Assembly: GCA_964356815.1 (NCBI GenBank)
Contig: CAYHIR010000002.1
Span: forward strand, 7,418 to 71,417
Direction of reading: 5' to 3'
DNA length: 64,000 nucleotides
From: an uncultured Candidatus Saccharibacteria bacterium
GTDB lineage: Bacteria > Patescibacteriota > Minisyncoccia > Phycocordibacterales > DATGWK01
Under the pieces are notes generated by a model. That model was not told the DNA's origin and did no database searches. It worked only from the letters and a program-made list of their open reading frames with translations. Within the stretch, counting starts at the first letter, position 1; every line of letters begins with the position of its first letter. The position numbers and the translations under genes were made by a program. Of the stretch, positions 3,289 through 7,775 are shown in pieces.

Positions 3289-3377
3289 GATGACTCCTTT
3301 CTGTTTTCGTTCTGTCCAATATTTAATCACAAACCGCCACATTGTCAAATATGCCGAAAATGTGTCATAATGAACAA

Positions 3378-3953
3378 ATGTCAGACAAAATGGTCGAGAT
3401 TCTCCAAAAAGACGCGCCTGAGCTTCGTCTCGTGGCCGAGCCGGTCGCTCTTGCCGACATCAAATCGCCAAAAATCGCGGCGATTATTTCGCACATGAAA
3501 AAAGCCCTTCTCGAACAAGACGACGGCGTAGCTATCGCCGCACCACAGATTGGCGAGAGTTTGCGTATTTTTATCGTCGCCAGTCGCGCTTTAAAAATGA
3601 TTGCTGAAGATGAAGGACTTATTGCCCATGATGACACTGGTGGTCTCAATAACACCGACGCAAAATTTTCCGATTTAATTTTCATCAATCCCGAAATAAT
3701 TAAAGCCTCAAAAAAAACGGAATGGATGGAAGAGGGCTGTTTGAGCGTGCGTTATCTTTACGGCAAAGTGAAACGCTCACCGAAGGTGACTGTGAAAGCC
3801 CACGATGAAAACGGCAAAATTTTCACCCGCGGCGCATCTGGCCTGCTCGCTCAAATTTTTCAACACGAAATCGACCATCTCGACGGCACACTCTTTATCG
3901 ACAAAGCCAAAAACATCAAGGAAATTTTGCCAGAAAAACCCGACGCGCTTTAA
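3378..3953 (+). CDS. def: peptide deformylase
   Basis: Carries the three PDF motifs GVAIAAPQIG, EGCLSV and QHEIDHLDG. Confidence 0.9.
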   Translation: MSDKMVEILQKDAPELRLVAEPVALADIKSPKIAAIISHMKKALLEQDDGVAIAAPQIGESLRIFIVASRALKMIAEDEGLIAHDDTGGLNNTDAKFSDLIFINPEIIKASKKTEWMEEGCLSVRYLYGKVKRSPKVTVKAHDENGKIFTRGASGLLAQIFQHEIDHLDGTLFIDKAKNIKEILPEKPDAL

Positions 3954-3972
3954 ATTTGCCGCGATTTTATAA

Positions 3973-4941
3973 ATGAAAAAAATTAATTTCACATTTCTTG
4001 GCTCTTCCCGCTTTTCGCTCATCGTTTTGGAAGCGCTCGAACGCGCAGGCTTTTTGCCAACTCTCATCATTACTGCACCAGACCAAAAGAAAGATCGTGG
4101 GCAGAAAGTTCATTCCACACTCGTAAAAGATTGGGCCGAGGCGCGAAAAATTCCTGTTGAGACTCCGCTCACGCTCAAAAATAATTCTGAAATCGCGGAA
4201 AAACTCGCCGCGGTCAGCACAGCCGACGGAACAAAGCCGCAAGTTTTCGTTACTGCTTCATACGGCAAAATTATTCCCAAAAATATTTTAGACATTCCGA
4301 AACATGGCACATTAAATGTGCACCCCTCCCTTTTGCCAAAATTTCGCGGCCCAAGCCCACTCGAAACTTCGATTCTCGAACTCGGCACAGAAAAAAACGT
4401 TGATAAAAATTTGCCGCGCGGTGCCGACCAAAATCCTGTCACACCCACCGGCGTCACAATCATGCTTACAGATGAAGATATCGACCACGGACCGATCGTT
4501 GCTCAAATAGAAGTTCCGATAGATGGTTGGCCGCCTGTACCGCCATATACAGAACAACTCGAAACAATTCTCGCGCGTGCGGGTGGCAATTTGCTCGCTG
4601 AAATTTTGCCGAAATGGATTGCGGGTGAAATAAAACCGAAGCCGCAAAAACATTCCGAAGCAACATTTACAAAAAAGTTTGAAAAAGCCGACGGACTCGT
4701 TGATCTTTCCGACGACGCCGCAATGAACCTCCGCAAAATCCGCGCTCTTCACCGTTCGCCTGGGACGTATTTCTTTGTTAAGAAGTCCGACGAGAAAATC
4801 GCGGCTAGTGGTGGTGAAAATAATATCCGCATCCGCATAAAAAGCGCCGACATAAAAAACGGTGAATTAATGCTCGACAAAATCGTACCAGAAGGCAAAA
4901 AAGAAATGACTTTTAAAGATTTTTGGCGGGGGTTTAGGTAG
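3973..4941 (+). CDS. fmt: methionyl-tRNA formyltransferase
   Basis: Formyltransferase N-domain with the HPSLLPKFRG motif and a C-terminal Fmt domain. Conserved def-fmt adjacency. Confidence 0.85.
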   Translation: MKKINFTFLGSSRFSLIVLEALERAGFLPTLIITAPDQKKDRGQKVHSTLVKDWAEARKIPVETPLTLKNNSEIAEKLAAVSTADGTKPQVFVTASYGKIIPKNILDIPKHGTLNVHPSLLPKFRGPSPLETSILELGTEKNVDKNLPRGADQNPVTPTGVTIMLTDEDIDHGPIVAQIEVPIDGWPPVPPYTEQLETILARAGGNLLAEILPKWIAGEIKPKPQKHSEATFTKKFEKADGLVDLSDDAAMNLRKIRALHRSPGTYFFVKKSDEKIAASGGENNIRIRIKSADIKNGELMLDKIVPEGKKEMTFKDFWRGFR

Positions 4942-4942
4942 C

Positions 4943-4971
4943 TTGACAGATTTATAAAATCGTGCTAGCAT
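4943..4971 (+). promoter_or_regulatory. sigma70-like promoter TTGACA-N17-TAGCAT
   Basis: Consensus -35 box with 17-nt spacing, upstream of the SD-bearing ORF at 5008. Confidence 0.45.
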
Positions 4972-5007
4972 TGAGACAGCCTGAATAGATAGAAAGGAGC
5001 CGCAAAA

Positions 5008-5370
5008 ATGTGCACGGCAATACTGTCCACGGCCGATTTGCCCGCATACAACGTCGTATGCCGGACATGTAATCATGTCTTTTCACCGGCCCGCAAAAGT
5101 TCTTTGTGGTGGAGAGCGGCGAAGTGCGCCGAAGGAGGTCGACTCAATGCGATGATGATCAGCGGAGAAGAATGCGGATGCGTCAGCACACCCGTCGAAC
5201 CAAATGCTCCCTTCAGACTTTTCGGGTACGATGACCTGTGCAGGCCATTCGACATACCGCTCGCCAGATTCATCGATGCAGTGAGGGGGTTCAAGAAACT
5301 GGAACGTACGGGATGCACGGTCTTCATTTCCGGAATTTCCAAGGAGGTCAGAGACCGAATAGGTGCGTGA
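5008..5370 (+). CDS. hypothetical Cys-rich small protein (GC-rich cassette gene)
   Basis: 120-aa ORF with SD AAAGGAG 8 nt upstream and a TTGACA promoter. About 55% GC. An overlapping minus-strand ORF (5083-5493) has no SD, so strand choice is uncertain. Confidence 0.4.
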   Translation: MCTAILSTADLPAYNVVCRTCNHVFSPARKSSLWWRAAKCAEGGRLNAMMISGEECGCVSTPVEPNAPFRLFGYDDLCRPFDIPLARFIDAVRGFKKLERTGCTVFISGISKEVRDRIGA

Positions 5371-5470
5371 AAACAACCCGCCGTCGACAAAGAGAACCAA
5401 TCTCCATGTCGAGGGCGGTTTTCTTTTTGTAAAATAAACAGTATCTACAAATTTTTGATATGATTTGTAA

Positions 5471-5752
5471 ATGACAACAATCGGAATTATCACCGTTATT
5501 TTATCTCTAACAGTAACAGGCCTAGGTTTAACCTCTCAGGTTAGAAAGAATAGGAAAAGAAAAAGCATGGAGGGATTGTCTTTTTTCTACTTTTCAATTC
5601 TTGCCATATCTTATTCTTTTTGGGTTTTGTATGGAATCGTTTTAAGAGACTGGATTCTTATCATTCCAATGTCCATAGGAGCAATTATGTCTTGGGTTAT
5701 GGTGGTCCAATTTTTTATTTACAAAAATTCAAAAATCTCAATTCAATCCTAA
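5471..5752 (+). CDS. small integral membrane protein (3 predicted TM; SemiSWEET/LAB-N-like size)
   Basis: 93-aa hydrophobic ORF with three hydrophobic segments. No SD, like host genes. Confidence 0.4.
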   Translation: MTTIGIITVILSLTVTGLGLTSQVRKNRKRKSMEGLSFFYFSILAISYSFWVLYGIVLRDWILIIPMSIGAIMSWVMVVQFFIYKNSKISIQS

Positions 5753-6252
5753 TCCCGCCTCTTCTTCCTCCAGTTCAACTTTTTCAATTGTTTGTAGCCG
5801 ATTTCAAAACCACTGCCGATACCGCTACCAACACTACCGATTCCACTTCCGATACCGCTACTAATTCCACTGCCGATGCCCCAAATGCCGCTACCAGCGC
5901 TTCGCAAGATATTTTTCACAGCCGCACCACCGCGGCGAAGCATGGTGATTTGTTTGGTTTTGTAATTTGAAAGTTCGCGCGCCATTTCGTCTTTGGCATC
6001 GTCGATTGAAGAATTTGGCGTTGTGTCTTCGGCCACAGCGCGAAATTGTTTGCCGTCCATGCGAATGTTAATTTCGGTTCGAAAAATGTCACCCGATTTG
6101 TGATGATTGGAAGTGCGCCCAATTTCTACTTCGCACAGCGTGCTCGTGTCGGTAGGGTCAATAAATTTATCAAGCATATCGATCTTCTTCTGAAGATAAT
6201 CCGCGACCTCGTCGCTCACATTCATATTTGTGCCCTTGATGTGAAATTTCAT
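5749..6252 (-). CDS. hpf: ribosome hibernation promoting factor (HPF/RaiA family) with C-terminal Gly-Ser-Ile repeat tail
   Basis: MKFHIKGTNMNVSDEVADYLQKKIDMLDKF...VEIGRTSNHHKSGDIFRTEINIRMDG matches the YfiA/HPF fold. C-terminal GSGIWGIGSGISSGIGSGIGSVGSGIGSG is encoded by a DNA tandem repeat at 5790-5900. Confidence 0.8.
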   Translation of the reverse strand: MKFHIKGTNMNVSDEVADYLQKKIDMLDKFIDPTDTSTLCEVEIGRTSNHHKSGDIFRTEINIRMDGKQFRAVAEDTTPNSSIDDAKDEMARELSNYKTKQITMLRRGGAAVKNILRSAGSGIWGIGSGISSGIGSGIGSVGSGIGSGFEIGYKQLKKLNWRKKRRD

Positions 6253-6433
6253 GCTTGTGTGATATTTATTAACTGATAATCGATGACTACATTCTAACAG
6301 ATTTTGCACGGATTTAAAAAAGTGGAGGAGGTTAATATTTTGCTTTTTTTGTAAACTGTGTTATTATCCTTTTAGAGCATGGGGGTTGGAAGTTCCAACA
6401 CTCAACCTTGTTTTTTACAGAAGGAGGTCTACT

Positions 6434-6952: not shown

Positions 6953-7067
6953 CCAAGAGAAAAGAGAAACTAGCCCACGTGGTCAAACACGGAGGGCTTT
7001 TTTATTAAAGATTTTCAACTTCATCCTGTTCTGCTATACTGCCCATGGTTCTTTCTAGAAACAACAT

Positions 7068-7376
7068 TCCGCGATAGCTCAGCTGGTAGAGCGAGCGACT
7101 GTGAACAAAATCGCAGCTTCCCGAAGTAATTCGGGTTGAAAAACGAGGTTAATTGCTGGAAGCCCACCCGATCGAAAGATCGCGGGTAATCAGCAGCCGA
7201 GCCTGTCATTCGACAGGAAGGTTCAGAGACTATCCCTAACGGGAGTACTTGGCCGAAAGGTCTAGGAAACACCTCGCGCCCCATTTATTGGGGCGATGAT
7301 ATAGTCCATCCCTTTAAGAAATTTTAGGATCGATGTAATCGCTTGGTCGCAGGTTCGAGTCCTGCTCGCGGAGCCA
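7068..7376 (+). tRNA. tRNA-Asn (anticodon GUU) interrupted in the anticodon loop by a group I intron
   Basis: 5' half 7068-7102: acceptor TCCGCGA, D-arm GCTC/AGCTGGTA/GAGC, anticodon stem AGCGA, loop CTGT. 3' half 7336-7376: TAA, TCGCT, variable TGGTC, T-arm GCAGG/TTCGAGT/CCTGC, acceptor TCGCGGA, discriminator G, CCA. The spliced anticodon loop is CUGUUAA. Confidence 0.75.
7103..7335 (+). ncRNA. group I self-splicing intron (233 nt, no ORF)
   Basis: R element GTTCAGAGACTA (7221-7232) and S element GATATAGTCC (7298-7307) form P7. The 5' exon ends in U and can pair with intron GCAG (7113-7116) as P1. The terminal nucleotide is G (omega-G) at 7335. Confidence 0.7.
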
Positions 7377-7380
7377 AAAC

Positions 7381-7409
7381 TTGACTTTTCTATGAAAACC
7401 TGCTATCAT
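7381..7409 (+). promoter_or_regulatory. sigma70-like promoter TTGACT-N17-TATCAT
   Basis: Consensus spacing, immediately downstream of the tRNA and upstream of the ORF at 7479. Confidence 0.5.
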
Positions 7410-7478
7410 GGTAGTAGCGTTTTCCAGTACCTTGTAACCCCGGGTTTAAACAAACCCATAAGAACCAAAGGAGTAGCC

Positions 7479-7775
7479 ATGAATATCTCACTCACGGATC
7501 CAAAAACTCTCGTGATCAATGGAGAAGATACTGAGGTCGGAGAAGTCGCACGCGCTGTGGCAATCTTGATGGAAGAAGGAAAGATTCCAAAAGGTTGCAC
7601 ACTGAAGTATGGCGGGTTCTCCGGCAGTGGCGTTGCCCTGTGTGTAGCACTTTGCAACGTGGTCCGTGATTTTTTTGTGGTGTTCCCAGTTTGCGCTGAA
7701 CAACAGCCCGATGGGAAGTACCTCGTTCAGGCAAGTTTCGACCCTACCGTGAAAACCGGTGCGATCATTGACTAA
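7479..7775 (+). CDS. hypothetical small protein (GC-rich cassette gene)
   Basis: 98-aa ORF with SD AAAGGAG 5 nt before ATG. Good promoter upstream and a long hairpin terminator downstream. Confidence 0.45.
   Translation: MNISLTDPKTLVINGEDTEVGEVARAVAILMEEGKIPKGCTLKYGGFSGSGVALCVALCNVVRDFFVVFPVCAEQQPDGKYLVQASFDPTVKTGAIID

Follow-up and report, generated by a model that had tools for sequence, protein, structure and literature searches.

In all probability, the DNA analyzed here (a stretch of 64,000 nucleotides, referred to below as the window) carries a chromosomal Patescibacteria tRNA-Asn(GUU) gene into which a 233-nt group I intron, free of any open reading frame and probably of subgroup IA, is inserted at 35/36. 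Such introns are already known. Nakagawa, Amikura, Omae, and Suzuki (mSystems 2026, PMC13011429; preprint of July 2025, bioRxiv 10.1101/2025.07.03.662931) have described group I introns at position 35/36 of tRNA-Asn(GUU) in Patescibacteria, and the window intron is an ordinary member of that published and experimentally validated class.

The two halves of the gene are 35 and 41 nt long, the second ending in GCCA, and the gap between them is exactly 233 nt (Table 1). An initial, sequence-only reading of the window had these coordinates exactly right, as direct reading and ARAGORN both show. Run on the joined exons, ARAGORN returned a tRNA-Asn(gtt) of 76 nt whose acceptor stem has 7 bp, which is the cloverleaf that reading had claimed; run in intron mode on the genomic sequence, it placed a 233-nt intron at 35-36 of a tRNA-Asn(gtt) ("actgt-Intron-taatc"). 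The spliced anticodon loop reads CUGUUAA, which we take to be the same as the loop of E. coli tRNA-Asn. With default settings ARAGORN reported no tRNA anywhere in the window, nor did the Rfam tRNA model; default ARAGORN is blind to the split gene because its default mode permits no intron. Even with intron-aware settings, this is the sole tRNA gene detected in the 64 kb, and no second or uninterrupted tRNA-Asn was found within the window by ARAGORN in default or intron mode or by a permissive Rfam scan.

The 36-mer that spans the spliced junction is present, identical and uninterrupted, on 14 metagenome contigs, and ARAGORN reads 13 of the 14 as tRNA-Asn genes. Several of these copies sit in multi-tRNA clusters, their contexts are unrelated to the window locus, and a tblastx comparison of the 14 contigs with the first 16 kb of the window found no similarity. 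The uninterrupted copies support the exon boundaries of the split gene; they speak to those boundaries and not to an empty site in this lineage.

The assignment of the intervening sequence to group I, also part of the initial reading, was confirmed by a significant match to the Rfam model Intron_gpI (RF00028) at 7093-7328, which covers the full model (1-253) and scores 70.9 bits (E = 5.6e-16; gathering score, 50). No other Rfam match in the 64 kb exceeds its threshold, and the permissive scan brought no further meaningful match; that scan, ARAGORN in intron mode, and Tandem Repeats Finder, each applied to the whole window, brought up nothing else of note. By direct reading, the R element (GTTCAGAGACTA) lies at 7221-7232 and the S element (GATATAGTCC) at 7298-7307, and the P7 helix that the initial reading had drawn between them folds with canonical pairs. 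We derived a full structure of the intron by hand, guided by the Rfam alignment (Table 1). All of its 70 pairs are canonical and they make up a complete P1-to-P9 core with P7.1 and P7.2, so that the P3-to-P9 core on which the initial reading had staked its case can indeed be folded.

TABLE 1 Coordinates of the split tRNA-Asn gene, its intron, and neighboring features of the window
Feature	Position	Strand	Basis or description
Promoter-like TTTTCA-17-TATACT	7012-7040	+	TG-extended -10; consensus scan, 9/12 matches
tRNA-Asn 5' exon, positions 1-35	7068-7102	+	TCCGCGATAGCTCAGCTGGTAGAGCGAGCGACTGT; ARAGORN, spliced sequence and intron mode; acceptor 5' strand, D arm, anticodon stem 5' strand, loop C32 U33 G34 U35
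Group I intron	7103-7335	+	233 nt, no ORF, probable IA-type architecture; Rfam, hand-derived structure, covariation
P1 hairpin	7099-7104 / 7111-7116	+	Exon CUGU (7099-7102) and intron GA (7103-7104) against UC (7111-7112) and GCAG
Internal guide GCAG	7113-7116	+	Pairs with exon CUGU; U7102 (U35)-G7113 wobble at 5' splice site
P2	7120-7125 / 7130-7135	+	6 bp; GUAA tetraloop 7126-7129; in free-energy fold
P3	7144-7149 / 7271-7276	+	Hand-derived structure, alignment of relatives
P4	7154-7159 / 7190-7195	+	Rfam alignment, structure
P5	7163-7165 / 7184-7186	+	Joining segments J4/5 AAG and J5/4 UAA
P5a	7169-7173 / 7178-7182	+	GAAA loop
P6	7196-7198 / 7220-7222	+
P6a	7202-7207 / 7212-7217	+
P7	7226, 7228-7232 / 7302-7307	+	5' strand G7226, bulged A7227, GACUA; predicted guanosine-binding helix
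P7 3' strand	7302-7307	+	Within the S element (7298-7307)
P7.1	7233-7236 / 7241-7244	+
P7.2	7248-7254 / 7259-7265	+	GAAA loop
P8	7277-7282 / 7290-7295	+	6 bp, 7-nt loop
P9.0	7308-7309 / 7333-7334	+	Encloses P9
P9	7311-7317 / 7322-7328	+	GAAA loop
Terminal G	7335	+
tRNA-Asn 3' exon	7336-7376	+	TAATCGCTTGGTCGCAGGTTCGAGTCCTGCTCGCGGAGCCA; ARAGORN; U36 A37 A38, anticodon stem 3' strand, variable loop UGGUC, T arm, acceptor 3' strand, discriminator G, encoded CCA (7374-7376)
Promoter-like TTGACT-17-TATCAT	7381-7409	+	TG-extended -10; consensus scan, 10/12 matches
def-fmt(-hpf) neighborhood	3342-6309

Several details of this structure correspond to what the initial reading had picked out by eye. The last exon nucleotide is a U that forms a wobble pair with the first G of the guide within the CUGU/GCAG pairing of P1, the last intron nucleotide is the terminal (omega) G, and the intron is free of a homing endonuclease gene, the longest open frame on its coding strand being only 45 amino acids. 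The predicted guanosine site in P7 has the pairs G7226-C7307 and G7228-C7306 on either side of the bulged A7227. An unconstrained minimum-free-energy fold independently gives P1, P2, P3, P4, P5, P5a, P6, P6a, P7.1, P7.2, and P8; it draws other pairings for P7, P9.0, and P9. P7.1 and P7.2 show up in the Rfam alignment as 35 nt that the consensus lacks, between P7 and the 3' strand of P3, and helices in this place are reportedly a hallmark of subgroup IA in the 1990 classification of Michel and Westhof. Their presence, taken with the published classing of relatives, would make the window intron IA-type. A search for a P10 helix joining the 3' exon to the guide region gave no convincing pairing; alignment of the exons probably relies on the anticodon stem instead. 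Elsewhere in the intron, AUCG at 7110-7113 is complementary to CGAU at 7331-7334, just 5' of the terminal G, and the two segments may represent an alternative pairing to P1 and P9.0.

To place the intron among its relatives, we scanned 185,579 species genomes with a pattern that combined the S element with the G/TAA of the 3' junction (the slash marking the splice site here and below) and the T arm; at least 120 matches resulted. Strict exon rules left a family of 110 loci, comprising at least 105 GTDB species genomes, the window, and its four copies. Among the matches listed, all 110 loci read CTGT/intron...G/TAA, G73 is present in 110 of 110, and U1-A72 is present in 109 of 110. Going by the labels of their records (L007-L126), the listed bins belong mostly to Patescibacteria lineages. 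A minority bear other labels as deposited, namely, Omnitrophota (L016, L018, L057, and L088), Elusimicrobia (L073), Planctomycetales (L036), and "Gammaproteobacteria" (about 12 bins). Among the at least 105 species representatives listed, the introns nearest to that of the window belong to Kaiserbacteria and Paceibacterota bins and are about 72%, and at most about 73%, identical to it. Introns of 511 to 630 nt occupy 30 of the 110 listed loci (L010, L015, L033, L035-L037, L039, L040, L055, L056, and about 20 more), and most of these contain an HNH-like open reading frame of about 100 to 125 amino acids, the frame being broken or absent in some. The motif of these frames is C..CGY...HH...CANCHRE.H, and the Pfam HNH matches of four of them (E of about 1e-3) fall below the curated cutoff.

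Covariation was assessed in 65 distinct introns of at most 300 nt, aligned with MAFFT from sequence only, with no use of the structure. Under the proposed structure, 89.4% of alignment cells are paired, versus 35 to 43% after a shift of the 3' partners by 1 to 3 positions, and for 48 of the 70 pairs both partners change (compensatory changes) in at least three sequences. Covariation is strong in P2, P4, P6a, P7.2, P8, P9, and the second pair of P9.0, and P3 and P6 covary too. Among the 65 relatives, P2 is paired in 96% of cells, with compensatory changes in all six of its pairs; P4 is paired in 99%, its pair 53-92 (intron numbering) being GC in 32 relatives and CG in 32; and P8 is paired in 83%, with five of six pairs compensatory. 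P3 (85% of cells), P6 (94%), and P6a (84%) are likewise largely paired, the latter two with compensatory changes. P7.1 and P7.2 are paired in 97% and 82% of cells where they are present and are absent from about 20 of the 65 relatives, and P5a is variable, with 50% paired. In P9.0, the pair 207-231 covaries (CG in 46, TA in 11, and AT in 5), which fixes the terminal G at 7335.

P7 is invariant in 65 of 65 relatives and thus draws no support from covariation, in part because the search pattern itself fixed its 3' strand. The CUGU/GCAG pairs of P1 are kept in 64 to 65 of the 65 relatives and the wobble at the splice site in all 65, so the exon part of P1, being invariant, is uninformative in this respect; the intron pair 1-10 of P1 does covary (GC in 25, CG in 17, and AT in 10).

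The host is a Paceibacteria-like bacterium of the Patescibacteria, its RpoB being 78 to 81% identical to proteins labeled Paceibacterota, Parcubacteria, Zambryskibacteria, Taylorbacteria, and Patescibacteria. Genes such as rpoB, rpoC, rpoD, dnaG, dnaE, gyrB, thrS, def, and fmt mark the window as part of a bacterial chromosome. The Fmt protein encoded at 3973-4941 is also found on contigs from the 0.1-µm fraction of Hainich groundwater well H41, and the window chromosome derives from this groundwater. The split gene recurs in four independent assemblies, where it is either identical to that of the window or different at 2 nt outside the catalytic core. In the strain variant (L004, 4056-4364), A7105U lengthens the P1 extension by one pair, and U7130A disrupts the pair that closes the P2 loop.

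Two promoter-like sites flank the gene (Table 1). The upstream one ends 28 nt before tRNA position 1 and is a candidate whose function is suggested by its consensus match. The downstream one, correctly described in the initial reading as TTGACT-N17-TATCAT, probably serves the next gene and is not a part of the intron or the tRNA. The small open reading frame that follows has two gene-caller starts, giving proteins of 127 amino acids (7392-7775) or 98 amino acids (7479-7775); a GGAG ribosome-binding site precedes the shorter version, which also leaves space for the promoter-like site. Its protein has no Pfam match.

If the reading is shifted by two bases, the gene becomes a tRNA-Thr(UGU) with its intron at 33/34, and ARAGORN reports exactly this, Thr(tgt) with an intron at position 33, in 67 of 117 related loci among the matches listed. 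Nakagawa et al. document the same ambiguity between Thr and Asn, with mislabeling as Thr(UGU) by both ARAGORN and tFind. In the window, however, such a shift would make A7333, and not a G, the last nucleotide of the intron, and we rejected the Thr reading for the window on account of this required terminal A. ARAGORN itself calls the window gene Asn. The guide GCAG pairs with CUGU, which makes the wobble U U35 and argues against Thr, and U1-A72 together with G73 fits the 13 uninterrupted tRNA-Asn genes that have the identical 36-nt junction. The in vitro products of homologues were sequenced as Asn (Nakagawa et al.). A tRNA-Thr is thus next to impossible here, and the Thr(tgt) labels of the relatives are an artifact of the ambiguity of CT/GT...G/TGTAA.

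Granting that the gene is a tRNA-Asn, the intron could still be a decayed relic that no longer splices, in a pseudogene copy with an intact tRNA-Asn elsewhere in the genome. Our view is limited to 64 kb of that genome, and the Rfam score of 70.9 bits is lower than the 90 to 96 bits of some relatives. We nevertheless consider decay highly improbable, given that all core helices are intact, that the U-G wobble at the splice site, the terminal G, and P9.0 are present, and that the exons give a flawless cloverleaf. The locus has also been kept in four assemblies with only two substitutions, none of them in the core, and a promoter-like site lies upstream of the gene. Moreover, a genome seldom has one copy with an intron and another without for a given anticodon (Nakagawa et al.). 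A separate matter is whether the intron is a recent mobile arrival, by homing or by phage, and not a vertically inherited resident. Mobility of some kind is suggested by the HNH-like frames of the long-intron relatives, by two phage-like contigs that have the same split tRNA-Asn, and by 71% identity over a 132-nt core stretch to an intron in a coliphage terminase gene. The window copy, on the other hand, has no open reading frame; its nearest listed relatives are only about 72% identical and reside in related Paceibacteria and Kaiserbacteria genomes; and the flanking def-fmt-hpf synteny is common to intron-bearing species. About 18 other loci, in Patescibacteria species, have def-fmt(-hpf) beside the split tRNA-Asn (L023, L028, L035, L046, L048, L051, L062, L064, L074, L082, L098, L105, L114, and others), and this shared synteny points to vertical inheritance and to an old resident of the locus. 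We therefore regard a recent arrival as unlikely.

Taking the preferred reading, that of a resident group I intron in a functional tRNA-Asn gene, splicing of the window copy would be expected to follow the guanosine-dependent self-splicing seen with its homologues. Transcription would yield a precursor of about 330 nt, in which the intron would fold into P1 to P9 and the guide GCAG would pair with C32 to U35, so that the U35-G wobble would come to lie at the 5' splice site. P7 would bind a free guanosine, which would then attack after U35. G7335, positioned by P9.0, would next take the guanosine site, and the freed 3'-OH of U35 would attack after G7335, ligating the exons into the loop CUGUUAA. 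RNase P would trim the leader to give the mature 76-nt tRNA, whose CCA is already encoded, and the spliced product would presumably be the working tRNA-Asn of the cell. From the fact that the guide reads CUGU, we infer that this type of intron is confined to tRNAs with GUN anticodons, a limit that fits the hosts reported at 35/36 by Nakagawa et al. (Asn, Asp, and Tyr).

It is conceivable, though a decidedly long shot, that the intron, far from being a neutral passenger, is kept as a gate at the RNA level, with splicing dependent on a free guanosine nucleotide and on correct folding. Nakagawa et al. raise this idea as a speculation. If it were true, the supply of what is possibly the only tRNA-Asn would track GTP or growth state in a regulator-poor cell.

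The window intron opens no new question. It is one more well-supported member of a class typical of Patescibacteria, and the family alignment, spanning at least 105 species, adds independent covariation support for the published structure. There is also a practical side: because default tRNA finders are blind to introns of this kind, a genome bin can seem to be without tRNA-Asn and be scored as less complete than it is.

Among known systems, the classical bacterial tRNA introns are those of subgroup IC3, which interrupt tRNA-Leu(UAA) at 34/35 (cyanobacterial and plastid), tRNA-fMet at 33/34, and tRNA-Arg(CCU) at 36/37; the intron of Azoarcus tRNA-Ile(CAU) is another classical IC3 member. The window intron resembles these in being small, in lying in a bacterial tRNA anticodon loop, in forming P1 from nucleotides of that loop, and in leaving the tRNA body to hold the exons. 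It differs from them in its host tRNA, in its site at 35/36, which is none of the IC3 sites 34/35, 33/34, or 36/37, and in having P7.1 and P7.2, both of which IC3 introns lack.

Group I introns also occur in protein-coding genes of phages, as with the IA2 introns in td and nrdB of T4. Our search of a phage collection with the locus and its surroundings (3 kb) produced only the 132-nt core match mentioned above, to the terminase intron of Escherichia phage RudolfGeigy (MZ501102.1). This coliphage intron, unlike that of the window, interrupts a protein-coding gene, and its exons are unrelated; the match shows a common core and not the source of the window intron. The RudolfGeigy gene for the terminase large subunit is annotated in three pieces separated by two group I introns (843-1121 and 1479-1705 of L149), and both match RF00028, with 84 and 95.6 bits.

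A closer phage parallel is provided by two phage-like IMG/VR contigs with a tRNA-Asn(GUU) that is itself split at 35/36 (129-428 on the minus strand of L141 and 5522-5813 on the minus strand of L145). The tRNA arrays of the contigs number 10 and at least 15 genes, the encoded proteins have matches in PHROG families of tail fibers, baseplate wedges, HNH endonucleases, and phosphoesterases, and their introns score 96 and 90 bits with Rfam while being about 60 to 65% identical to the bacterial ones. Phages may thus move the intron between phyla, as these tRNA arrays with the same split gene suggest; the available portion of the paper by Nakagawa et al. makes no mention that we found of phage carriage of the split tRNA-Asn.

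The site itself was, according to Nakagawa et al., first listed by Williams (2020; bioRxiv 10.1101/2020.01.27.920355) as the tFind class "Asn.4Ug." The window intron has the features of that class, an insertion after the fourth nucleotide of the anticodon loop with U at -1 and G at the 3' end; the listing is a bioinformatic catalog only. The nearest known system is the Patescibacteria class of Nakagawa et al. The initial reading had cautiously called Asn an unusual host, which does not hold for this phylum: tRNA-Asn(GUU) is the commonest host of tRNA group I introns there, since 22 tRNA genes in 95 complete genomes carry an intron and 15 of these are tRNA-Asn. Of the 28 introns at 35/36 in that study, 25 were classed as subgroup IA, and no Patescibacteria tRNA intron was assigned to IC; homing endonucleases are few, with HNH frames in four long Asn introns. 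Precise self-splicing in vitro was demonstrated for two 35/36 homologues by sequencing and with a mutant in which the terminal G was changed to C, and the copy of GCA_016700035.1 spliced in vitro. The window genome apparently falls outside the 95 complete genomes of that study. In all other respects compared (host tRNA, anticodon, site, U at -1, terminal G, a probable IA-type architecture, phylum, and the absence of an open reading frame that is usual in the class), it corresponds to the published introns, down to being a gene that default annotation tools miss or mislabel.
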